Origin: a virus
Reading direction: 5' to 3' (one strand)
Virus record (IMG/VR): IMGVR_UViG_3300042378_000602
DNA length: 64,000 bases
The translations under genes were made by a program, and so were the position numbers. Shown here piece by piece: positions 17,751-58,304 of the stretch. Position 1 is the stretch's first letter; every line of letters starts with the position of its first letter. The notes beneath the pieces are model-generated. The model was given only the letters and a program-made list of their open reading frames with translations, searched no databases and was not told the DNA's origin.

Positions 17751-20700
17751 ATGGGAAAAAATATTTTAATTGTTCCGAGTAATTTCACTGAGAGGACTGC
17801 TAACCGTACTCCATTTATAAGTTATGAGGGTACCACGGGTCAGGTTATTCTGACGGTTACACCTTCAGGTAAAATTAAATTCAGCGGTAATACTGTTGGT
17901 GATACAAATTTGATGACAGTAGACCCTGCAAATTCTACAGTTTCAGTAAACACTATTTTTGTAGGAAATTACCTTGCAATAGGAGGGGTTCAGGTAATAA
18001 ATGCCACAAACAATTGGATTGGACCCACAACAGGTATAGCTGGTTCTCAGGGTGCAAAAGGATTCAACGGAAATACAGGTCCTACGGGTGCAATAGGTAA
18101 CACAGGAGCACAAGGTGCTATTGGTGCTGCAGGCGCCACAGGACCTCAAGGTGCTCAAGGTACATTTGGGCCTAAGGGTGCTCAAGGAACTGCCGGAGCA
18201 CAAGGAAATACGGGTGCTCAAGGTAACAATGGACCCAAGGGTGCCACAGGAGCACAAGGGTCAGCAGGTGCGCCAGGTAATACAGGTAACCCTGGACCTA
18301 CAGGACAAAGTGGACACCCTGGTCCACAAGGACCAACGGGAGCCGTTGGTAATACAGGAGCACAGGGTGCGATTGGGGTTACAGGACCCACAGGTAATAC
18401 AGGTGCTCAAGGACCTGTAGGACCAACAGGTGGACAAGGTGCTCAAGGACCACAAGGAGCTCAAGGTCCAAAAGGATTTTCAGGTGCACAAGGTGCAACA
18501 GGAAACACAGGTGGAACAGGACCCACAGGAAATACAGGACATCCTGGCGCTCAGGGTGCTACAGGAAATCCTGGACCTACGGGTGTCACAGGGTCTCAAG
18601 GAGCCGTTGGACCCACCGGTGCTATAGGAGCTCAAGGACCCAAAGGAGCACAAGGGAATACTGGAAACACAGGGGCACAAGGAGCCACAGGAAATCCTGG
18701 TCCACAAGGTTTCACAGGTAATGTTGGTGCGGTAGGGCCCACAGGTGCGATTGGTCCAAAGGGACCACAAGGACCTACAGGAAATACAGGTAATGTGGGA
18801 CCACAAGGTGCCACAGGTACCACAGGCCCAACAGGTGATACAGGAGCTACAGGACCTGCAGGACCACAAGGTGCTGTGGGACCAAAAGGAGACACAGGTA
18901 ATACGGGGGCTCAGGGTGCTGTGGGGCCACAAGGAGCAACTGGTCCGACAGGACTTTCAGGTGCTCAAGGTGCCCAAGGTGGGGTAGGACCGACAGGGGC
19001 TACAGGACCACAAGGAGCTCAAGGACCTGCGGGTAATACGGGTCATTCTGGTGCACAAGGTGCTACAGGACCAACAGGGCCTGGAGGTAACACAGGTGCT
19101 CAAGGGGCGGTTGGACCGAAAGGGGCTACAGGACCTCAGGGAGCTCAAGGACCCGCAGGTGGTACAGGTAACACAGGGGCTCAGGGTGCCACAGGACCAC
19201 AAGGTTCGCAAGGGGCGGGTGGTGGAACAGGTCATCCAGGTGCCCAAGGTCCCCAAGGAGCGATAGGACCACAAGGTTCACAAGGAGCCACAGGACACAC
19301 TGGTGCTCAAGGCCCACAAGGTGCCACAGGACCACAAGGCTCACAAGGGGCTACAGGACATCCTGGTGCCCAAGGTAGTCAGGGTGCGGCCGGACCAAAA
19401 GGACCTAATGGATTCACAGGTCATCCTGGAGCGCAAGGACCGCAAGGTTCAGCGGGAGCAACGGGTGCTCAAGGTCAGACAGGTCATCCGGGGGCACAAG
19501 GTGCAGGTGGACCTACTGGGTCTCAAGGACAAGGGGGTGGTACAGGACATCCTGGAGCTCAAGGTGCCATAGGACCCAAAGGACCTCAAGGACCTACAGG
19601 TGCTACTGGCCATCCTGGTGCTCAAGGTGCTGGTGGAGGTACTGGTAACGAGGGGGCACCAGGTTTCACAGGACATCCAGGTGCACAAGGTGCTACAGGA
19701 CCAGGAGGTAGTCCGGGTGCTCAGGGTTCACAAGGTTCCCAAGGACCTCAAGGAGCTCAAGGAAATACCGGTCCGACCGGCGTACCGGGAGCTACGGGGC
19801 ATCCTGGTGCTCAAGGAGCGGTCGGTCCAACTGGCCCACAAGGTCCGTCAGGTAATACAGGACATCCTGGTGCACAGGGAGCAACGGGTCCTACAGGACC
19901 TCAAGGAAATACAGGTGCCACGGGTGCTATTGGACCCCAAGGTGCGGGAGGTGCCACAGGCTCACAAGGGGCTGTAGGACCTCAAGGAGCAACTGGAGCC
20001 ACAGGAGCCCAAGGTCCACAAGGTCCAGGTGGTCCTACAGGACCTGGCGGGGCACAAGGTGCTCAAGGAGGAGGAGGTGCCACAGGACCTCAAGGACCAC
20101 AAGGTCCAAAGGGACCTCAGGGTGCTACAGGTCCTACAGGGGGTCCTGGTCCAACTGGACCACAAGGTCCTCAGGGACCAACAGGAGCACCTGGACCTAC
20201 AGGTGCCACAGGACCACAAGGTCCTACAGGTGGTCAAGGTACACAAGGCTCATTAGGTGCAACAGGAGGGCAGGGTGCTCAAGGTTCCCAAGGAGCTGTT
20301 GGACCTGGAGGTGTAACATGTCAACTGAATAGTATTATTGCTCTTACAGGAAGTAGAAACCCATGTGTAGGTGTTTGTAATATCACTGTACCCAACGTTT
20401 ATCCATACACTCAAACTGCTTACACAGCCACACAAAACAAATATTTCGATGCTACGAATTGTTCAAATGGTACTTGTGATTGGAATACTTATAACTGGGA
20501 ACAATGGAATAGTGCATGTTATTCATTAAACGCCACTTGTGGTAATGGTACCTATCAGCAGGCTTGTGCTTATTCTGACGTGAAACTTAAAACAGGTATT
20601 GAAACCTTGAAAGATTCTCTTATAAAAATATTGGAAATAGAAACTGTTGAGTATGATTGGAACGAAAAAAATTGGGGTACCAAAGAAGAGTATGAATATT

Positions 20701-20912
20701 TTGCTCAGATGGGAAGATTACATCAGATAGGTCTAATTGCACAAAACGTAAGAATTCATTTCCCTGAAGCTGTTGGAATCGGTCCTGATGGATATTATTA
20801 CATTGACTACAAGAAATTAAATTCTGTTGTAGTTGAAGGTATAAAAGAACAACAAGTATTTATTGAAGAGATAACTAAACAAGTAGACGAATTAGAAATT
20901 AAATTGAGATAA
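17751..20912 (+). CDS. collagen-like (Gly-X-Y) tail fibre protein with C-terminal intramolecular chaperone (peptidase S74) domain
   Basis: about 850 aa of uninterrupted GXY triplets (many [12 protein letters not shown]); Cys-rich module; C-terminus [12 protein letters not shown]...[13 protein letters not shown]... of the S74 type. Confidence 0.8.
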
Positions 20913-23896
20913 TGCCATCTAATGTAATTATATATCCTACCGGTAGAACGTGGAACACTGACCCTCATTTTATTTTTGATGATGGAACTAATAAATTACA
21001 ATTCAACGTTTTAACTGACGCAATAAGTCTGTCTGCTGGGTCAATTTCAAATAATTTTGTAATTGGTACAAAAGGTTCAGACAATGGTGTCACAACCTCA
21101 GGGGCTTCCGCACAGTCACTATATTTCAACGCCTCACAATTCATAGGTTCTGGAGGTGTTTGGGTCGGACCAACTGCCGGTATCGCTGGTGCTCAGGGAG
21201 CTCAAGGTGCTCAGGGAGCCCAAGGTGGTCAGGGAGCTCAAGGAGCTCAAGGTGCAAATACAGGAGCTCAAGGTGCTACAGGTGCCCAAGGAGCAACAGG
21301 CGCACAAGGTGCGGCAAACACAACACAAGGTGCTCAAGGTACAATTGGGTCTCAAGGAGCTCAGGGTGCCACAGGAGCTCAGGGTGGAAATACGGGTGCT
21401 CAAGGAGCCACAGGAGCTCAAGGTAACCAAGGAGCTCAAGGTGCTCAAGGAGGAACAGTTGGAGCTCAGGGTGCTCAGGGTGGTCAGGGAGCTCAAGGTG
21501 CTCAAGGTGCTCAAGGTGCAAACACAGGTGCTCAGGGTGCGACAGGTCCCCAAGGAGCCCAAGGAGCGGTAGGTGCTACAGGAGGAGTTCAAGGTGCTCA
21601 AGGTGCCGTCGGTGCCACAGGTGATTTAGGTGCTCAGGGAGCTCAAGGAGCCAATACCGGAGCCCAAGGTGCTCAAGGTGCACAGGGAACTCAAGGTGCA
21701 CAAGGTGCTCAGGGAGGAAATACTGGTGCACAAGGTGCTCAGGGTACTCAGGGTACACAAGGTGCTACAGGTGCTCAAGGAGGAGTACAAGGTGCTCAAG
21801 GTGCTATAGGTACTACAGGACCACAAGGTGCTCAAGGGGCCCAAGGGGCAAACACAGGAGCTCAAGGTGCTCAAGGTGGTCAAGGTGCTCAAGGAGCTCA
21901 AGGTGCTCAAGGAGGAGTACAAGGTGCTCAAGGGGCTACAGGTCCTACGGGGGTACAAGGAGCACAAGGTGCACAAGGAGGAGTACAAGGAGCACAAGGT
22001 GCAACAGGACCTCAAGGAGCTCAAGGGGCTCAGGGATTACAAGGTGGACTTCAAGGTGCCCAAGGTGCAACAGGTGCTCAAGGTGCACAAGGTTCTACAG
22101 GTGCTCAAGGAGGTACCCAAGGAGCTCAAGGTGCCACAGGACCACAAGGTGCACAAGGAGCAATAGGAGCTCAAGGAGGAGTACAAGGTGCTCAGGGTGC
22201 AACAGGAGCAGCGGGAGCTCAAGGTGCTCAAGGAGCCCAAGGTGCAAATACAGGTGCTCAAGGCGCCACAGGACCTCAAGGTGCTCAGGGGGCGACAGGA
22301 GCCCAAGGGGGTGTACAAGGTGCTCAAGGCGCCACAGGTCCTCAAGGTGCTCAAGGTGCTCAGGGGGCTCAAGGTGCAAATACAGGAGCTCAGGGTGCTA
22401 CAGGTCCTCAAGGTGCTCAAGGTGCTCAGGGAGCCCAGGGTGCCAGTCCAGGTGCTCAGGGCGCTCAAGGTCCAAAAGGACCTCAAGGTGCTCAAGGAGC
22501 CCAAGGTGGAAGTGCAGGTGCCACGGGTGCGCAAGGTGCAACAGGTCCTCAAGGAGCTCAAGGTGCCCAAAGTGGTATAACAGGACAGGCAGGAGCTCAG
22601 GGTGCTACAGGTCCCCAAGGGGCACAAGGTGCTCAAGGTGGAAGTGCCGGTGCTACAGGAGCAGTCGGTGCACAAGGAGCTACAGGAGCACAAGGAGCCC
22701 AAGGTGCTAATCAAGGAGCACAAGGTGCTACGGGTGCTACAGGAGCTCAAGGTGCTCAAGGTGCTCAAGGTGCTAATCAAGGAGCCCAAGGTGCGACAGG
22801 TCCACAAGGTGCTCAGGGTTCACAGGGTGCACAAGGTGCTAATCAGGGAGCACAGGGGGCTCAAGGAGCTCAAGGTGCTCAAGGTTCTCAGGGAGCACAA
22901 GGAGCCAATCAGGGTGCACAAGGTGCTACAGGTCCACAAGGTGCACAAGGTGCAATTGGACCAAATAATACGACACAAGGTGCTCAAGGTGCTCAGGGAG
23001 GTCAAGGTACTCAGGGAAGTCAAGGAGCACAGGGTGCTAACCAAGGCGCTCAAGGGGCACCTGGAGTTCAAGGAGCTCAAGGAGCACAAGGTGCACAGGG
23101 TGCTAATCAAGGGGCTCAGGGAGCACCTGGAGTTCAAGGTGCTCAAGGTGCTCAAGGTTCTCAAAGTGCTACTTCGGGAGCACAAGGTTCTACAGGACCT
23201 CAAGGTGCTCAAGGTTCTACAGGACCCGGTCCTGGTCCGCAAGGAGCCCAAGGTCCACAAGGATTGACTGGAGGTGGAGGGAACACAGGTGCACAAGGGT
23301 CCCAAGGAGCTACAGGAGCCACGGGTCCTACAGGTGCTCCTGGTGGAACAGGAGCCACAGGTGCTCAAGGAGCCACAGGATTTGCTGGAAGTACTCAGGG
23401 TGCTCCAGGTGTACCAGGACCACAGGGGGCTCAAGGTCCGACAGGTGTTGGTGGTGCCACAGGCCCAACAGGCCCAACAGGTTTCAAGGGGAATACAGGC
23501 CCAACAGGCCCAACAGGTGCCACAGGTGCTCAGGGAGCACAAGGCGCTAAGTCAGATAAAAGATTAAAAGATAATATAGTTGAATTCAAAGAACCTCTCA
23601 CCCGTCTGAAACAAATCCAAGGTGTTAAATTTACTTGGGACCATGAACATCCTAAAATTAAATTTCATAAGCACCTGAATGCTAAAGAAGCGTTCACAGG
23701 TGATACTTATGGATTCATAGCTCAAGATGTAGAAAAAGTATTTCCTGAGATTGTTGACACTGACCCAACTGATGGATACAAATCTATGGATTATGGACTC
23801 TTGGTTAGTTTAGCCTTCGCATCAATTAAAGAGAATCAAAAAAGAATATTGTCAGTGAAAGATAGAATAAATAGATTAAAACAAGTAGTGAACTAA
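20912..23896 (+). CDS. collagen-like tail fibre protein with C-terminal S74 intramolecular chaperone domain
   Basis: GAQGAQGAT-type triplets across about 800 aa; C-terminus [12 protein letters not shown]...[16 protein letters not shown]; start overlaps upstream stop (TAATG). Confidence 0.8.
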
Positions 23897-26800
23897 TGGC
23901 ATCATACGTAGTATATTCAGGGACGAGTTATCTAAATGCGTGTAATTCTGTGGCATCACAGACTATTTATACACCGTGTCCATCACTAAGTGGAGGTTGT
24001 GTAGTCTATACAGATGCAGGTTATACTAATGTTATTACTTTCTCTCCATTATTACCTAATTTATATCTAAAGGATTCTGTTGATACAACGGTTTGGAAGA
24101 TAAATAGGACAGGAACTGTCACGGAGGTTAGAAAATGTACTGAATTTTCAGGTGATGAAAATATAATTGTTTATCCTGATGGAGCCAATTTTCAACTTAT
24201 AGATTCTGGAGGAACTGCCACTAACTGGTATATGGAGAATGGTGAGTTGAAATTTGGAACTTTAACTTCCACTTTAGCAAGAATAAGTACTTCCTATCCA
24301 AACCTCAGAGTCAGTGGGGGGTCAATAACACTTACTAACAAACTTGCAAATGCCTCGGGAGATTTAATAAATTCAACAGGATGGGTCGGAGCTAAATTAC
24401 CTCAAGGTCCAACGGGTGCTCAAGGTTCACAAGGTTCTACTGGTGCTCAAGGAGCTCAAGGGGGTCAAGGAGCACAGGGTACCCAAGGTTCAACAGGTGC
24501 CCAAGGTTCTCAGGGTGCTCAAGGGGGACAAGGTGCTCAAGGTGCTCAAGGGTCACAAGGACCTACAGGTGCACAAGGTTCACAAGGTGGTCAAGGTTCA
24601 CAAGGCTCACAAGGTTTTACAGGTGCTCAGGGTTCACAAGGAGCTCAAGGAGGACAAGGTGCTCAGGGTTCACAAGGAACTTTGGGACCCACAGGAGCTC
24701 AAGGTTCTCAAGGTGGTCAAGGAGCCCAAGGAGCCCAAGGTTCAACAGGTGCTCAAGGTTCGCAAGGAGCACAGGGTGGACAGGGCGCTCAAGGTTCACA
24801 AGGGGCTAAAGGTCTCACAGGTGCTCAAGGGGCACAAGGTGGACAAGGTGCCCAAGGTGCTCAAGGTTCCCAAGGTACAACAGGAGCCCAAGGTTCCCAA
24901 GGGGGACAAGGTGCTCAAGGTGCTCAAGGCGCAGTTGGTCCTACAGGTGCTCAAGGAGCTCAGGGTGGACAAGGGGCTCAAGGAGCTCAAGGGGCTGTCG
25001 GTCTCACAGGAGCTCAAGGAGCTCAAGGTGGGCAAGGTGCTCAAGGAGCACAAGGGGCTCTCGGTCCTACAGGAGCTCAAGGTTCCCAAGGTGGACAGGG
25101 TGCTCAAGGAGCACAAGGTTCACAAGGTTTAACAGGTGCGCAAGGGTCCCAAGGTGGTCAAGGAGCTCAAGGAGCTCAGGGAGGACAAGGTGCTCAAGGT
25201 GCCCAAGGTCCTAAAGGTCCACAAGGTGCTCAAGGAGCCCAAGGTGCTCAAGGTTCAACAGGAGCCCAAGGTTCCCAAGGTGGAACAGGAGCCCAAGGTG
25301 CTCAAGGTTCAACAGGAGCCCAAGGTTCACAAGGTTCACAAGGTGGAACAGGAGCTCAAGGAGCCCAAGGTTCAACAGGAGCCCAAGGTGCTCAAGGTTC
25401 CCAAGGAGGACAAGGTGCCCAAGGGGCTCAAGGTACAACAGGTGCCCAAGGAGCTCAAGGAGCTACAGGAGGTCAAGGTGCTCAGGGTTCTCAAGGACCC
25501 ACAGGAGCCCAAGGTTCTCAAGGTGCCGGAGGAGGACAAGGTGCACAAGGAGCTCAAGGTATAGTTGGAGCCCAAGGTGCTCAAGGTGGAGGTGGAGGAC
25601 AGGGTGCACAAGGAGCACAAGGAACGACAGGTCCCGTAGGTGCACAAGGTTCACAAGGTGGGCAAGGTGCTCAAGGTTCCCAAGGTGCACAAGGTGCCAC
25701 AGGAGCTCAAGGTTCTCAGGGCGTCGCCGGAGCTCAAGGTGCTCAAGGTGCTCAAGGAGCTGTTGGTAGTCAAGGTTCACAAGGAGGACAGGGTGCACAA
25801 GGAGCTCAAGGTTCACAAGGAGCTCAAGGTGCAACTGGTCCTGGTGGCGGACAAGGTGCTCAGGGAGCACAAGGAGCCACAGGTTCACAAGGTGCTCAAG
25901 GTGGAGGTGGTGGACAAGGTGCCCAAGGTGCTCAAGGGCCCGTCGGTTCACAAGGTTTTCAAGGAACAACTGGAGGTCAAGGTGCACAAGGTGCGCAAGG
26001 ACCTACTGGACCTACAGGTATCACAGGACCTAAAGGGGGTCAAGGTGCACAAGGTGCTCAGGGAGGACAAGGTGCACAGGGACCACAAGGTCATATCGGT
26101 GCAAACGGTGCAACTGGTGTTCCTGGTCCTATTGGTCCCAAAGGACCTACGGGTCCTACGGGAGGTCAAGGTGCTCAAGGAGCTCAAGGACCTGGTGGTG
26201 CTCAAGGGGCTCAAGGTCCTACGGGAGGTCAAGGTTCCCAAGGTGGAGGAGGAGCTCAAGGGGCTCAGGGTCCAACAGGACCTGGAGGTGCTCAAGGTGC
26301 TCAAGGAGCTCAAGGTCCCAAAGGTCCAATAGGTGGACAAGGTTCTCAAGGTCCCACAGGGGCTCAGGGTACCGCCGGAGGACAAGGTTCTCAAGGCGGT
26401 GGTGGTGCCCAAGGTGCTCAAGGTGCTCAAGGTCCGCAAGGAGGCCAAGGTGCTCAAGGCGGTGGTGGTGCCACAGGAGCTCAAGGACCTCAGGGGGGTC
26501 AAGGTGCCCAAGGACCACAAGGTGGTCAAGGTCCACAAGGTGCACAAGGTGCAACCGGTCCAAATGGTTTACAAGGTGCTCAAGGTGCACAAGGTACCAC
26601 TGGTTCTGACCTAAGATTAAAAAAGGACGTAAAAGAAATACAATCCCCACTAGAAAAAGTCCTGAAATTGAGAGGTGTTTCATTCTATTGGAATAAATTA
26701 AATGATGAAACATCCCAATCAGGTAAACATGATATTGGATTCATTGCCCAAGAAATAGGTCATATATTACCTGAATTGGTTTTCAAGAAAAACACCGAGA

Positions 26801-26940
26801 ACGCATATTTCATGGTAAAATATGCTGAAGTAATAGCTGTTTGTTTAGAAGCCATTAAAGAACAATCCTTGATTTTGGAATCTAAAGAAATAAAACTTGA
26901 TGAGTTAGAGACAATAGCCAAGGAAAGAGGACTTATTTAG
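23896..26940 (+). CDS. collagen-like tail fibre protein with C-terminal S74 intramolecular chaperone domain
   Basis: 165-aa unique N-terminus, then GAQGSQG triplets; C-terminus [12 protein letters not shown]...[16 protein letters not shown]; start overlaps upstream stop. Confidence 0.8.
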
Positions 26941-43409: not shown

Positions 43410-43658
43410 ATGAATTATTTAATTTCCGAATCACAATTAGAATCATTAGTATCGGCACAACAACCTGTACCTGTAATGTCATTCAGGTCTGCACTGAAAA
43501 AGATTGTAGATGTCTTGAAAAAAGATGATTATGAACCAGAACAAATAATGGATTTTATCCTTGGACTAAGATATAAAGATGAGTTTGTTATCAGAAAGGT
43601 TCAAAAGTACAAGGACGACCCTGAGTTTCTCACTGCGGTTTCCAAAATTATTGGATAA
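43410..43658 (+). CDS. hypothetical protein
   Basis: start trimmed from 43206 to ATG 43410 (MNYLISES) to remove the 170-nt antisense overlap with 42907-43377. Confidence 0.4.
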   Translation: MNYLISESQLESLVSAQQPVPVMSFRSALKKIVDVLKKDDYEPEQIMDFILGLRYKDEFVIRKVQKYKDDPEFLTAVSKIIG

Positions 43659-44523
43659 ACTCATCTATATTTTTAGGTGAACTATCGAAACCGTAATATC
43701 TGATTTCGAACTGAGGACTGAGTAAAATTTGTTTTTCCTCATCGAATTCATTACAGTAAACAACGCCTTCTTCTATCTCTTCTAAAAATTCTATATCTAA
43801 ATCACCCCATTCTCTATAATTGAGAGTTATTATATTCGGGTTGTTTTCGATGTTTTCCCTTGCTCCGACAGGTTCGGGTCTCCCGACATTTAATTCACAA
43901 AGATTCTTTAGATTTTTATCCCAAGAACAAATGAATATAAGCTCGATAGATGAATCCGTACCTTCTAACTCGCCATCGGCATTACAGTTATGACAATCAA
44001 GTCGGGATTCACCGTCACAACGACTACAATTGACTGTACCTCCGCCATCACATTCCTCGCAATCAACTTCTCCACTTCCGTCACACATGTCACAAGAAAC
44101 CTTTTCACCTGCGTCACCTTCTATTTTACCTTCCCCATCACAATCACTACAAATTACTTGACCACTACCATCACACTCCGAACACGACTCGTTACCACTT
44201 CCGTCACATTCTGAGCATTCAAATCTTCCTTCACCATAACAATCACCACACTCCTCAACATATTGTGAACCTGTTTTCCAAAAGAGAGATGCGAAGAAAA
44301 GATTTTCCAAAGCGAAATCGGCGAATTCGAAATTTCCCTTTTTTTTCAAGGACAAGATATAAAAATAAAATTTCAAAAACTCCTGAGGAGTAAAACTAGA
44401 AAAATATATTGCTTGTTTTTTTGCGACCTTTTTCAACACATTAAAAATGTCATTGTTATGTTCAACGTTACGGAACATTCCGATAAGTTGCTGTGCCAAC
44501 CTTTTCAACCTTTCATCTGTCAT
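43648..44523 (-). CDS. protein with at least eight tandem CxxCxGxG (DnaJ-type) zinc-finger units, no J-domain
   Basis: CSECDGSG, CSECDGSG, CSDCDGEG, CDMCDGSG, CEECDGGG, CSRCDGES, CHNCNADG repeated through the middle of the protein. Confidence 0.55.
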   Translation of the reverse strand: MTDERLKRLAQQLIGMFRNVEHNNDIFNVLKKVAKKQAIYFSSFTPQEFLKFYFYILSLKKKGNFEFADFALENLFFASLFWKTGSQYVEECGDCYGEGRFECSECDGSGNESCSECDGSGQVICSDCDGEGKIEGDAGEKVSCDMCDGSGEVDCEECDGGGTVNCSRCDGESRLDCHNCNADGELEGTDSSIELIFICSWDKNLKNLCELNVGRPEPVGARENIENNPNIITLNYREWGDLDIEFLEEIEEGVVYCNEFDEEKQILLSPQFEIRYYGFDSSPKNIDEFIQ

Positions 44524-45146: not shown

Positions 45147-45671
45147 ATGATTGAGGTTTTTGATGAGTTTCTCACCCCTGAGGAAATAACTGAGTTGTTC
45201 AAAACTCTAAGGGAGAGTTCTTGGATTTTGGAAGAAAAGGTCCCTTATCTTTCCGAAGTTCAATTAGAGGGAGGTGCTGATATTGGTTATATAAAAGAGA
45301 TACCTGAGAACACCATATATTGGAAGATTTTGGGTCGATTACATTCTTTACCAATAATATCAGGAAAATACAAATTCTTTTCAGCATTCCGAAATGCATA
45401 CAAGAGAGGAGATGTTACAGCTCTCCATACAGATGAGTCAGATATCACAGCACTTTTATATGGTAATCCCAAATGGAACATAAATTGGGGTTCGGAAACC
45501 ATTTTTACTGAAAGTTTATCACCTGATACAGAGATAATTGCGAGCATAATACCCAAACCTGGTAGGTTGGTAATTTTCGATTCTTCTATCCCACATTCAG
45601 GTAGACCACCAAGTTCAAGTTTTGCAAACCACAGATATTCAGTGGCTTATAACTTCAAAAAAATAATTTAA
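45147..45671 (+). CDS. 2OG-Fe(II) oxygenase, prolyl-4-hydroxylase-like
   Basis: ALHTDES (HxD), ITALLYGNPKWN..WGSETIF, GRLVIFDSSIPHSG (distal His), HRYSVAYNF (RxS). Confidence 0.6.
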   Translation: MIEVFDEFLTPEEITELFKTLRESSWILEEKVPYLSEVQLEGGADIGYIKEIPENTIYWKILGRLHSLPIISGKYKFFSAFRNAYKRGDVTALHTDESDITALLYGNPKWNINWGSETIFTESLSPDTEIIASIIPKPGRLVIFDSSIPHSGRPPSSSFANHRYSVAYNFKKII

Positions 45672-53569: not shown

Positions 53570-53887
53570 ATGTCAACTCTACGTTCAGAACTATCCATTA
53601 GCTCAAGAACCACAGGATTTGCATCTCCTGCGGAATCTTATGTAGACAAACGTCTTGACCTGAATGACCTAATCATTCAGGACGTGCACACAACCTTTTA
53701 TTTTCAATATAAAGGTCCAAACACACTTGGAGTAAGGACAGGAAATATCCTCGTTATTGACCGTTCTATTGAGCCACACGAAGGAGATTTAGTTATTATC
53801 ACCGAGAAGGAATGTTTTAAGATTAGAAAATACGAAGGACAATCAAATGTTTGGGGAAGAGTAAATTGGATTTTAAATAAACTATAA
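53570..53887 (+). CDS. umuD: UmuD'-like SOS mutagenesis accessory protein, lacking catalytic Ser
   Basis: GFASPAESYVDKRLDLNDLIIQ...GNILVIDRSIEPHEGDLVII aligns to E. coli UmuD GFPSPAADYVEQRIDLNQLLIQ...[20 protein letters not shown]; GDSM serine replaced (GPNT). Confidence 0.6.
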   Translation: MSTLRSELSISSRTTGFASPAESYVDKRLDLNDLIIQDVHTTFYFQYKGPNTLGVRTGNILVIDRSIEPHEGDLVIITEKECFKIRKYEGQSNVWGRVNWILNKL

Positions 53888-53890
53888 TTT

Positions 53891-54109
53891 ATGATTGAAA
53901 TTTTGGGATGGGTTGCCACCTCAGCTGTGTTACTATCTTTTTTCTTTAAAGACATGTTAAAATTGAGAATTGCTAACTCAACGGGTGCAATTTTATGGTT
54001 GATTTATGCGTTACTCAAATCTGACTATCCTTTAATTGCGGTGAATACTGCAGTTCTTTTTGTCCATGGGTATTGGTTCATCTCAAACTATAAAACATGG
54101 AAGAATTAG
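53891..54109 (+). CDS. small membrane protein
   Basis: two TM helices. Confidence 0.35.
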   Translation: MIEILGWVATSAVLLSFFFKDMLKLRIANSTGAILWLIYALLKSDYPLIAVNTAVLFVHGYWFISNYKTWKN

Positions 54110-54309
54110 ATTTACATGGACTACTTCACATAGATGTACCACTCGAAGTTTTGAATTTTTTATACCTTCATCATGAAAGTTTTCCTGTGAAAATCATCAC
54201 AGGTAGGTCAACAAAGATGAATGAAATCGTCGTAGACATTTTAAAAAAAAACGGTTATCATTATGATGTTCCTGCGCACAATCCTGGTGAAATAATTGTA
54301 TTGTATTAA
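54097..54309 (+). CDS. hypothetical protein
   Basis: small ORF between the umuD-like and umuC genes. Confidence 0.35.
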   Translation: MEELDLHGLLHIDVPLEVLNFLYLHHESFPVKIITGRSTKMNEIVVDILKKNGYHYDVPAHNPGEIIVLY

Positions 54310-55515
54310 ATGGAAAAGAAGAAGATAGGGATAGTCGATTGTAACAACTTCTATGTTAGTTGTGAAAGAGTTTTTAATCCCATTTCAATCGGACGACCAA
54401 CAGTTGTGTTATCAAACAACGATGGTTGTGTTATCGCTCGTTCTCAAGAAGCGAAAGACCTTGGAATTAAAATGGGTGAACCATTCTTCCTAAAAAAAGA
54501 TTTCATGGAAGAGCACAGGTTTTGTGTATACTCCTCCAACTATAATCTTTACGGTGATATGTCTGACAGAGTCATGACAATAATAAAAAAGTATGCTACC
54601 GAAGTTGAAGTATATTCTATTGATGAATGTTTTGTTGACTTCTCAAACATACCTGATGATGAATTGATGGATAGACTTTTACTTATTAAAAACGAAGTGA
54701 AAAGATTGGTTGGAATTCCTGTTTCAATCGGTGTTGGTCCAAATAAAACATTGGCAAAACTAACTTCATACATTGCCAAAAAACAAGACTCATATAACGG
54801 AGTATGTTCTTATTGGACTTTACAAAATGTAAGGAATTTACTTTACACAATATCAGCTGATGAGGTTTGGGGAATCGGGAGAAAATGGTATAAGAAGTTG
54901 AAAATGATTGGTGTGGATAGTGTTGGACAATTCGTAATGTTGAACGATGGTCTTGTGAGAAAGATGATGACAGTAAATGGGTTGAAAACAAAAATGGAAT
55001 TACTTGGAATGTATTGCCATCCCGTTCAACCTGTTCCAAAATTGAAAAGAAACGTGGCGTCAACAAGGTCATTTGGAAAAGATATTGATACGTTTGACCA
55101 AATAGCCGAGGCTATGTATTCATACGTAAAAAGTGGTGTTAAAAAGTTGCACGAGAATGGAATATCTCCAAACAGAGCAACCATATTCATTGCGGGTAAT
55201 AAACATAAAGATGAAAAACACTACACCAGTAAACAAATACTATTCCAAAAACAGACAAGAGATGAAAATGAGATATGGTCTCAAATCTATCCACATTTGA
55301 AGAAGATGTTCAAAACAGGAAAAAAATATAAAAAGTGTGGAATCATATTCAATGACCTAATGCCTGAATCAATAGAACAGGGGACACTCTTTTCAAGTTC
55401 GATACAAATAGTTCAACCACCAGCAAACGTAGAAAAAGAATGGGAAATGAGACAAGAGTTCATGTCTCAAAAGTTCACAACCTCTTGGAAAGAAATTCCA
55501 TCAGTATTTGTATAA
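54310..55515 (+). CDS. umuC: Y-family translesion DNA polymerase, UmuC/ImpB-like
   Basis: IGIVDCNNFYVSCERVFNP..RPTVVLSNNDGCVIARSQEAKDLGIKMGEPFF closely matches the UmuC N-terminus. Confidence 0.9.
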   Translation: MEKKKIGIVDCNNFYVSCERVFNPISIGRPTVVLSNNDGCVIARSQEAKDLGIKMGEPFFLKKDFMEEHRFCVYSSNYNLYGDMSDRVMTIIKKYATEVEVYSIDECFVDFSNIPDDELMDRLLLIKNEVKRLVGIPVSIGVGPNKTLAKLTSYIAKKQDSYNGVCSYWTLQNVRNLLYTISADEVWGIGRKWYKKLKMIGVDSVGQFVMLNDGLVRKMMTVNGLKTKMELLGMYCHPVQPVPKLKRNVASTRSFGKDIDTFDQIAEAMYSYVKSGVKKLHENGISPNRATIFIAGNKHKDEKHYTSKQILFQKQTRDENEIWSQIYPHLKKMFKTGKKYKKCGIIFNDLMPESIEQGTLFSSSIQIVQPPANVEKEWEMRQEFMSQKFTTSWKEIPSVFV

Positions 55516-56044: not shown

Positions 56045-56338
56045 ATGAATAAAATACAACAGTCTATTCAAAGAAATTTATTTCTGATACTTGAAGAATC
56101 TGAGAACCTTCAGGGGTGGGGAAATTCTAAAAAACAACTTTCCAAAACCTTCACGTTTGATGATTTTAAAGATTCGATGAAATTTGTGAACAGTGTTGCG
56201 AGAATTGCTGAAAAACAAAATCATCATCCAGATATCACTGTAAATTACAATAAAGTTAAACTTACCATTTCCGACCATGAAAAAGGTAGAGTTTCTGAGA
56301 AATGTATCAAATTTGTAAAGGAAGTTGATAAGTTATGA
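56045..56338 (+). CDS. pterin-4-alpha-carbinolamine dehydratase (PCD/DCoH)
   Basis: NHHPDITVNYNKVKLTISDHE matches the PCD signature [EDKH]-H-H-P-x5-[YW]-x9-H-[DE]. Confidence 0.8.
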   Translation: MNKIQQSIQRNLFLILEESENLQGWGNSKKQLSKTFTFDDFKDSMKFVNSVARIAEKQNHHPDITVNYNKVKLTISDHEKGRVSEKCIKFVKEVDKL

Positions 56339-57602: not shown

Positions 57603-58304
57603 ATGAAAGTCAGACTAACGGAACAAGAACTTATTGAACTTATAAAACAAGTTATCAAAGAGGAGGAAGCTCCAAATTTGCTTGACGTACCTCATTACCT
57701 TCAATCTGATGACAGTACATGTGGTCCCGCATCCCTCAGAATGGTTATGGGTTTTTATGGTTTAGATATTTCGGAAAAAGATTTGGCAGCAGCTTGTGGT
57801 CACTCTTATGAGTTGGGATGTCGTAGTGAAGATATGGCTTGTGCTGCTGAGAATTTGGGATTCGATGTAATTCTTAAAAATAATTCTACAATATCAGAAT
57901 TATCAAATATAGTAAATTCAGGTGTTCCTGTTATTGTAGATTGGTTTTGTGGTGACCCACCCGAGGGACATTCCTCAGTTGTGATAGGTGTTGATGAAAA
58001 AAATATATATATTCTTGACCCATATTTGGAAGAAATGAGAACAGTGACAAAAGAGGATTTTAGAAGATGTTGGTTTGATTTTTATGAAACTCCTATAACT
58101 CCCGATAATCTTTACGTGGGACAAATCATGGTTTTAAAACCCAATCAGAATTTCCGTACCACTTTGAAAAGTAAAATGGAACCAATCGAAAAATTTGAAA
58201 CCAATGAGTCTGAGTTAAATGAAAGATGCTGGAAGGGTTATACTCAGAAAGGGATGAAAACCATGTTCGGTAAAAGATATCCCAATTGTGTAAAGAAAAA
58301 ATAA
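57603..58304 (+). CDS. peptidase C39-like cysteine protease (papain fold)
   Basis: VPHYLQSDDSTCGPASLRMVMGFYG (Gln/Cys) and downstream PEGHSSVVIGVD (His). Confidence 0.6.
   Translation: MKVRLTEQELIELIKQVIKEEEAPNLLDVPHYLQSDDSTCGPASLRMVMGFYGLDISEKDLAAACGHSYELGCRSEDMACAAENLGFDVILKNNSTISELSNIVNSGVPVIVDWFCGDPPEGHSSVVIGVDEKNIYILDPYLEEMRTVTKEDFRRCWFDFYETPITPDNLYVGQIMVLKPNQNFRTTLKSKMEPIEKFETNESELNERCWKGYTQKGMKTMFGKRYPNCVKKK

Follow-up and report, generated by a model that had tools for sequence, protein, structure and literature searches.

Polymerase V of Escherichia coli is the textbook mutagenic polymerase, held under several layers of RecA and SOS control, and how RecA activates it is still debated. 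In the published model of the complex, the arm of one UmuD' reaches into UmuC close to its active site, with the palm domain on one side and the little-finger domain on the other (PMC11791011). RecA-NT, the N-terminal half of the DUF4113 domain of UmuC, is the proposed contact to the RecA subunit of the active mutasome, and UmuC's C-terminal tail binds UmuD' (PMC6511836, PMC11791011). Many temperate phages carry genes annotated as UmuD or UmuC. Here we describe a pair from a window of 64,000 nucleotides of the IMG/VR virus record IMGVR_UViG_3300042378_000602 (the window being this whole stretch), in which the gene for a 105-residue UmuD homologue, which we call mini-UmuD, lies upstream of a gene for a UmuC-type Y-family polymerase (Table 1). 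We think it probable, though by no means certain, that the two encode a compact phage polymerase V in which the accessory subunit functions with no need to cleave itself, and in which RecA and SOS control has been dismantled on both subunits.

The pair has the same gene order as E. coli polymerase V (the UmuD'2C-RecA-ATP mutasome), MucA'B and RumA'B. Its small subunit shares the fold and the arm motif GF(P/A)SPA-x-Y of the E. coli enzyme and its relatives, and its large subunit shares their UmuC catalytic residues, steric gate, QxxLF clamp motif and C-terminal tail. Unlike E. coli polymerase V, the phage pair has no Ser/Lys dyad, no Ala/Cys-Gly cleavage site, no D91/E93 patch, no RecA-NT and no SOS box. 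Compared with E. coli UmuD, mini-UmuD also has a shorter N-terminus and an internal deletion, and the pair is carried by very large phages. What appears to be new is that one strongly conserved clade, restricted to phages, has lost three things together: the catalytic dyad of UmuD, its RecA-docking patch and the RecA-NT of UmuC; we found no description of a family of mini-UmuDs and RecA-NT-less UmuCs in the searchable literature, subscription journals lying outside its scope.

The original prediction, made from the sequence of the window, had placed four open reading frames here, and all are present on the plus strand, including two small ones, of 72 and 70 residues, between the umuD-like gene and umuC. 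The mini-UmuD matched PHROG 811 (4e-19) and, well under its curated cut-off, the NCBIfam model for the polymerase V autoproteolytic subunit (5e-18); against Pfam Peptidase_S24 it scored 20.3 bits, where the cut-off is 23.3. BLASTP aligned it with E. coli UmuD (reference sequence from MG1655) at 35% identity over 81 residues (E 2e-17), in a register that pairs Gly16 with Gly25, Asn51 with Ser60 and Arg86 with Lys97. A 117-member family profile aligned to UmuD' in the PDB (UmuD' match 1.8e-12) gave the same register. The original prediction had described the alignment with UmuD as residue-for-residue. That holds for the register at Gly25, Ser60 and Lys97, but it passed over an internal deletion of 22 residues, UmuD residues 106-127, which are missing in every aligned family member.

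The LexA/UmuD C-terminal domain fold is present in mini-UmuD, as judged by structure prediction, Foldseek and the profile comparison with the PDB. In an AlphaFold2 (AF2) model built from the family alignment, residues 30-105 are globular, with a predicted local distance difference test score (pLDDT) of about 90, and residues 1-26, the arm, are disordered (pLDDT below 50). The best PDB matches of the model were UmuD' (1AY9, 1UMU), then UmuD on the RecA filament (8GMT), followed by the C-terminal domains of LexA and lambda cI. Of the parts that bear on dimerisation, the N-terminal helix is kept, with its LDLN motif and an invariant Asn32 that corresponds to Asn41 of UmuD, and so is the strand at the C-terminus, although 22 residues are deleted.

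Searching a collection of 5.8 billion proteins produced a family of 347 clusters at 90% identity, of which 120 were listed; the length is exactly 105 residues in 96 of these 120. The residue counts given below are for 121 sequences, the 120 listed members and the window protein, aligned with E. coli UmuD, and conservation was taken from a profile of 117 aligned family sequences with 27 invariant positions. The ratio of non-synonymous to synonymous substitution rates (dN/dS) of the mini-UmuD gene was 0.03-0.22 in pairs without synonymous saturation, and the gene is under purifying selection.

It had been claimed that the protein lacks the nucleophile serine, and alignment for the Ser-Lys dyad had been proposed as the check. 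BLASTP, the profile and the family alignment all show the dyad to be missing at the aligned positions, Asn51 standing for the nucleophile and Arg86 for Lys97. Across the 121 sequences the Ser60 position is Asp in 51, Asn in 46, Lys in 9, Glu in 6, Ser in 5, Ala in 2 and Thr in 2, so that one of Asp, Asn, Lys or Glu occupies it in 112. The Lys97 position is Arg in 119 and Lys in one. On these alignments mini-UmuD cannot be a self-cleaving UmuD, because the dyad is missing. The scissile Cys24-Gly25 position has changed as well, to Thr-Gly in 117 of the 121 and Ser-Gly in the other four, in place of Ala-Gly or Cys-Gly.

The N-terminus does not look like that of UmuD'. Ahead of the Gly25 equivalent mini-UmuD has 15 residues, compared with 24 in E. 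coli UmuD, and within this extension no variation is seen at Ile10 or Thr14, while Leu8 and Thr15 are conserved to at least 90%. No alternative in-frame start (ATG, GTG or TTG) occurs in codons 2-17 of the gene. A free N-terminus at the Gly25 equivalent is thus not encoded, with 15 residues ahead of it and no internal start codon. The statement that most of the N-terminal arm is gone was therefore only partly right: the arm is shortened, yet 15 residues remain ahead of the glycine and it is not cut back to the cleavage site. Because the conserved extension is kept, and there is a large internal deletion, mini-UmuD is not the ready-made UmuD' mimic that had been proposed. The arm motif that follows, GFASPAESYV (GFPSPAADYV in UmuD'), is the most conserved part of the protein, with eight of its ten residues invariant in the 117 sequences and the other two, Ala18 and Ser23, at least 90% conserved.

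These features also separate mini-UmuD from HumD of phage P1 (and from N15 gp26 and phiKO2 gp23), likewise a phage UmuD homologue in which the arm is exposed without self-cleavage. In the P1-type phage RCS47, HumD has its first residue precisely at the Gly25 equivalent, shares 41% identity with UmuD across the full C-terminal domain and keeps both Ser60 and Lys97; it is pre-truncated, not dyad-less. No umuC is annotated beside the gene in the stretch of RCS47 examined, and P1-type HumD reportedly relies on the UmuC of its host. In contrast, mini-UmuD keeps an extension, has lost the dyad, carries an internal deletion and has its own UmuC, and against the NCBIfam HumD model (NF051876; 2e-13) it reached 50.5 bits where the cut-off is 120. 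The analogy with HumD drawn in the original prediction is sound as a general idea but fails in the start point, the dyad, the partner and the model score.

Self-cleavage is not the only RecA-dependent step that has disappeared. Cryo-electron microscopy of UmuD on RecA filaments identified contacts at F18, Y52, F94 and the acidic pair D91/E93, and charge reversal of D91/E93 impairs UmuD cleavage (PMC9926225). In the mini-UmuD family the Asp91 position is Lys in 102 of the 121 sequences and the Glu93 position is Cys, His or Tyr, and the acidic patch facing the RecA groove is lost. The Phe18 position is mostly polar (most commonly Asn, Gln or Lys). The docking aromatics at UmuD 52 and 94 are kept, but the docking set as a whole is not there. 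By comparison, positions 60, 91, 93, 95 and 97 are S-D-E-T-K in the majority of the canonical viral-contig UmuDs examined. Upstream of the mini-UmuD gene the intergenic gap is 22 nucleotides. None of eight published LexA-box classes, including two Bacteroidota motifs (PMC8565304), was found near the mini-UmuD/UmuC pair, and a scan for promoters and terminators stayed at background level.

The partner, as had been predicted, is a UmuC, and no grouping with DinB was found. The 401-residue protein has IMS (1.5e-33), IMS_C (3.7e-13) and DUF4113 domains, the last with a UmuC-type tail, and we assign it to UmuC rather than DinB because it scored 281 bits against the NCBIfam UmuC model and 143 bits against the best polymerase IV model, both under the curated cut-offs. 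It is 34% identical to E. coli UmuC. The catalytic Asp10, Asp105 and Glu106 align with E. coli D6, D101 and E102, and the steric-gate pair Phe14/Tyr15 with F10/Y11.

What is missing from this UmuC is RecA-NT, a more telling loss that the original prediction had passed over. Between the clamp motif and the tail, the phage protein has a linker of 16 residues, compared with 38 in E. coli and 36-39 in nearly all measurable canonical UmuCs, and Pfam DUF4113 is matched at profile positions 26/27-51 in the window UmuC and three relatives, compared with 1-51 in E. coli. A hidden Markov model (HMM) of RecA-NT, built from the motif in 70 canonical UmuCs of viral contigs, matched all 70 of these (E 1.4e-9 or better) and none of 11 family UmuCs. 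We also considered whether RecA-NT might be supplied by a separate small open reading frame, and rejected this for the window because no reading frame of it matched the HMM significantly (best E-value 0.14). In a recent survey of Y-family polymerases, limited to bacterial genomes, RecA-NT was completely absent from only four groups, all of them small: DinP, DinX and two that are polymerase IV-like. UmuC was not one of these (PMC12926913).

The UmuD'-binding tail itself is present, and the surface it would dock on may be the former active site. In the polymerase V model the C-terminal carboxylate of UmuC contacts S36, T71 and K73 of UmuD', and its lysine side chain pairs with E69 (PMC11791011). 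Assuming that UmuD' is numbered from Gly25, these are S60, T95, K97 and E93 of UmuD, and the residue types fit. In the mini-UmuD family the position of S60 is Asn or Asp, that of T95 is Lys in 120 of 121 sequences, that of K97 is Arg in 119 of 121 and that of E93 is Cys, His or Tyr, and the window UmuC ends in ...VFV as against ...RVK. We infer from these alignments that the pocket was retained for docking of the UmuC tail after catalysis had been lost.

Two other kinds of system resemble the phage pair in part. In Bacillus subtilis and SPbeta, YolD-UvrX and YqjX-YqjW likewise place a small non-proteolytic accessory protein beside a UmuC-like polymerase, one of the two pairs in a prophage, and the N-terminal arm of YolD-type proteins is predicted to insert into the polymerase (PMC12926913). 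YolD and YqjX, however, belong to a different sequence family, SH3-like rather than S24, and their polymerases keep RecA-NT and are SOS-regulated. DinP, DinX and most DinB-type proteins with a PolY core also lack RecA-NT and are presumably RecA-independent, but these have no UmuD partner and no UmuD'-binding tail, whereas the window polymerase groups with UmuC and keeps the tail.

The pairing of the two genes is a stable feature. In all related loci with sufficient DNA but one, umuC is preceded on its own strand by a mini-UmuD gene; the exception is L043, where none was found in the 2.5 kb upstream of umuC. The gap between the genes varies from 0 to about 950 nucleotides and is filled with unrelated cargo, in relatives a 189-residue open reading frame, a 126-residue one or both, and tblastn found neither the 72-residue nor the 70-residue frame of the window in the divergent relatives searched. 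As the cargo differs between relatives, the two small intervening reading frames are not part of the polymerase module. The gap appears to be an insertion hot spot, occupied in the window (53888-54309), in L011 (6320-7266) and in L020 (6315-6695), and empty in L019 and L028. Judged by eye, without a family-library scan, the 189- and 126-residue frames of the relatives are flavodoxin-like and thioesterase-like, respectively. An LDLHG...IITGRS pattern is seen in the 70-residue frame of the window, possibly a small nuclease of the Smr-like kind.

In the assembly collection, the exact mini-UmuD protein of the window is indexed in 336 blocks, and the contigs concerned reach 90 kb; in IMG/VR, relatives occur on viral contigs as long as 317-321 kb. 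When the genomes of 185,579 species, one for each, were scanned by pattern, nothing above 44% identity was found, and that in a partial match, although exact peptide patterns can miss relatives. Searched exhaustively with the profile, 1.84 billion representative proteins yielded 2974 matches with E up to 0.001, 194 of them up to 1e-10. Among the 133 best matches of no more than 200 residues, 47 share the internal deletion, and few of these 47 have the dyad. All six of the more distant mini-UmuDs that we looked up adjoin a UmuC gene, and the two of these UmuCs with a complete C-terminus both lack RecA-NT and have the same 16-residue linker. Since the distant mini-UmuDs adjoin UmuC and both complete UmuCs lack RecA-NT, the combination of features is, on these alignments, that of a broad clade and not the oddity of a single phage.

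Other unusual UmuD homologues turned up along the way. The IMG/VR loci L082, L083, L092, L095 and L115 encode further dyad-less viral homologues (a 142-residue Thr-Gly type, and L115), while L089, L097 and L104 encode HumD-like pre-truncated ones of 125 residues that start M-A-F. The UmuCs adjoining these dyad-less or pre-truncated proteins all keep RecA-NT. Thr-Gly at the cleavage position tracks with loss of the dyad. Four proteins of 246-285 residues from the search of representative proteins (P0248, P0250, P0262 and P0278), read by eye, are natural two-domain UmuD homologues. Their first domain has an AGFPSPA arm and has lost the serine, with Arg seemingly at the Lys97 position in at least P0248 and P0250; the second is armless and keeps a G-x-S-M/L serine motif and a lysine in the matching strand. 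They resemble single-chain heterodimers of substrate and enzyme, echoing the intermolecular cleavage of UmuD.

If the pair is a compact polymerase V, it might work as follows. The catalytic subunit would be an intact UmuC, and the 105-residue UmuD-fold subunit would act at full length, its GFASPAESYV arm inserting into UmuC. The hydrophobic C-terminal tail of UmuC would dock on mini-UmuD, probably in the former active-site pocket, where the near-invariant Lys84 and Arg86 are predicted to lie, and UmuC would reach primer ends through its QGTLF clamp motif. As all the RecA and SOS layers known from E. coli (the dyad, the scissile bond, the acidic patch, RecA-NT and the SOS operator) are absent, the polymerase would be made along with neighbouring phage genes and would not have to wait for RecA filaments. 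It would probably serve to copy damaged phage DNA, for example after sunlight damage in surface fresh water, with a raised mutation rate as a side effect. The original prediction of a polymerase V that does not need RecA-mediated cleavage of UmuD is a reasonable reading. We are more doubtful about a stronger version, which is possible but on balance unlikely: that this is a natural minimal polymerase V, fully active without RecA cleavage or a RecA subunit, in diverse and widespread large environmental phages that use it to replicate through damage with a timing of their own, and that the pocket is now a UmuC docking site and nothing else.

Several points weigh against a compact, RecA-free polymerase V. 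What we show concerns sequence features, fold, synteny, conservation and distribution; complex formation, activity, RecA independence and biological role we infer from sequence. When RecA is absent, the UmuD'2C of E. coli shows little activity as a polymerase (PMC12926913), and for this reason a UmuC without RecA-NT might be weak, or might use an activator that could be encoded elsewhere in a genome of about 320 kb. The conserved 15-residue extension could interfere with the polymerase or need removal by another protease, and the 22-residue deletion could affect dimerisation. The peptide patterns used in the genome scan may also have passed over relatives.

The possible need for another protease leads to the alternative that survives best, although we regard it as unlikely: mini-UmuD may be a precursor cut at Thr15-Gly16 by another protease, either a UmuD- or LexA-type protein of the host acting in trans or a phage enzyme. 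This would expose a GFASPA N-terminus, and regulation would remain although self-cleavage had been lost. The invariance or near-invariance of Thr14, Thr15 and Gly16 and the conservation of Leu8 and Ile10 fit such a site, as does the free UmuD' N-terminus beside the active site in the polymerase V model (PMC11791011). Cleavage of UmuD is intermolecular (PMC9926225), and in the two-domain homologues the domain with the arm is dead and is joined to one that is active but has no arm. Thr at P1, however, was found here only in dyad-less homologues, and there is no conservation of F18, L21 and Q23, which keep the region around the cleavage site on RecA. In none of the loci was a second S24 gene seen beside the pair, and no protease candidate was found.

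A little less likely again is that mini-UmuD behaves as an uncleavable UmuD, which would restrain the polymerase or disturb host replication or the SOS response in the manner of the E. coli UmuD2C checkpoint. E. coli UmuD(S60A) is not known to support mutagenesis and UmuD2C slows replication, and a protein that retains an N-terminal extension and cannot cleave itself might do the same. The extension, though, has no counterpart of TFPLF, the clamp-binding-like motif of the UmuD arm, and competition for RecA filaments is unlikely because the docking surface is lost. The UmuC active site, clamp motif and tail are all kept and the pair is conserved and syntenic, which argues for selection for a working polymerase complex.

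The remaining two explanations are both highly improbable. An ordinary SOS-type umuDC operon, with a precursor UmuD that undergoes self-cleavage on RecA filaments before activating UmuC, would account for the homology of both proteins, the operon order, the glycine at the Gly25 position and the residues upstream of it, but is largely refuted by the alignments, with nucleophile and general base missing across the family, Thr-Gly in place of Ala/Cys-Gly, the RecA-groove contacts lost, a UmuC without RecA-NT and no SOS box. That mini-UmuD is a functionless, decaying remnant beside a UmuC that acts alone like DinB could be argued from the lost catalytic residues, the roughly one quarter of the protein that is missing and the Pfam score under the cut-off, but is contradicted by the low dN/dS, the number of clusters, the uniform length, the invariant positions, the strict synteny and a UmuC that keeps its UmuD'-binding tail.

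Our preferred reading, a compact polymerase V freed from RecA, matters for several reasons. Multisubunit complexes with a bacterial Y-family polymerase are without any experimental structure (PMC12926913), and this would be a small complex, perhaps constitutively active, on which structural and biochemical studies could be made. A family without recognisable RecA inputs tests which parts of the UmuD'-UmuC contact are essential, and here the subunit-contact elements appear to stay under strong selection although the RecA inputs have been discarded. It also indicates that abundant large freshwater phages may carry their own machinery for lesion bypass and mutagenesis, independent of the damage response of the host.

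Table 1. Coordinates of the polymerase genes, their sequence features and the intervening reading frames in the window.
Feature	Position	Strand	Basis or remark
mini-UmuD gene	53570..53887	+	105 residues plus stop; predicted UmuD/S24-fold accessory subunit without catalytic dyad
Codons 1-15, N-terminal extension before the Gly25 equivalent	53570..53614	+	consensus M-x4-K-E-L-x-I-K-S-R-T-T
Codons 16-25, GFASPAESYV arm motif	53615..53644	+	family conservation
Codon 51 (Asn), at the UmuD Ser60 nucleophile position	53720..53722	+	alignments
Codon 86 (Arg), at the UmuD Lys97 general-base position	53825..53827	+	alignments
Small membrane protein, 72 residues	53891..54109	+	weak YgjV/SemiSWEET-like match; variable cargo
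70-residue open reading frame	54097..54309	+	weak Smr-like match (E 0.046, 14 bits, below cut-off); variable cargo
UmuC-type Y-family polymerase gene	54310..55515	+	401 residues plus stop
Beta-clamp-binding motif QGTLF, residues 357-361	55378..55392	+	aligns with E. coli QLNLF
16-residue linker, residues 362-377, at the canonical RecA-NT place	55393..55440	+	alignment, HMM
C-terminal tail, residues 378-401 (W-E-M...TTSW..IPSVFV)	55441..55512	+	equivalent to the UmuD'-binding tail of UmuC

The source of the window looks like a very large freshwater phage. The role in lysogeny that had been suggested as possible was not borne out: there is no sign of lysogeny, and the contigs of relatives reach 321 kb. 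Rich in AT (G+C about 32%), the window is closely packed with coding sequence, for the most part on the plus strand. Among its genes are one for a sigma factor, several for DNA methyltransferases and one with an amidase domain; no tRNA genes were found in it. Compared with the DNA of known phages, the window gave no megablast match and a single blastn match of 169 bp, inside umuC. A Shine-Dalgarno-like tetramer lies within 20 nucleotides upstream of only 2 of the 68 predicted window genes, against 21% in random 17-mers. Depletion of Shine-Dalgarno motifs is typical of Bacteroidota and their phages, and because such motifs are nearly absent upstream of the genes, this hints at a host in that group.

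Some neighbouring genes deserve mention. Near the polymerase module lie genes for a pterin-4a-carbinolamine dehydratase (56045-56338) and a C39-family cysteine peptidase (57603-58304). One open reading frame of the window matches DnaJ (J domain plus C-terminal domain), and the only match of a 291-residue frame on the minus strand (43648-44523) is a faint one to a DnaJ-type zinc finger (BSD2_CRD). Three tandem frames of about 1000 residues (1053, 994 and 1014) occupy 17751-26940, where G+C rises to 0.48-0.58 from about 0.32 in the genome, presumably from Gly and Pro codons; the first, the only one scanned, has collagen triple-helix repeats and a terminal Peptidase_S74, a tail-fibre chaperone. 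The frame at 45147-45671 matched PHROG 274, DNA endonuclease V (5e-20), which would have suited a theme of ultraviolet tolerance. We rejected this assignment, as Pfam identifies a 2OG-Fe(II) oxygenase and the PHROG label looks misleading; an enzyme of the prolyl-hydroxylase type would be sensible beside collagen-like genes.

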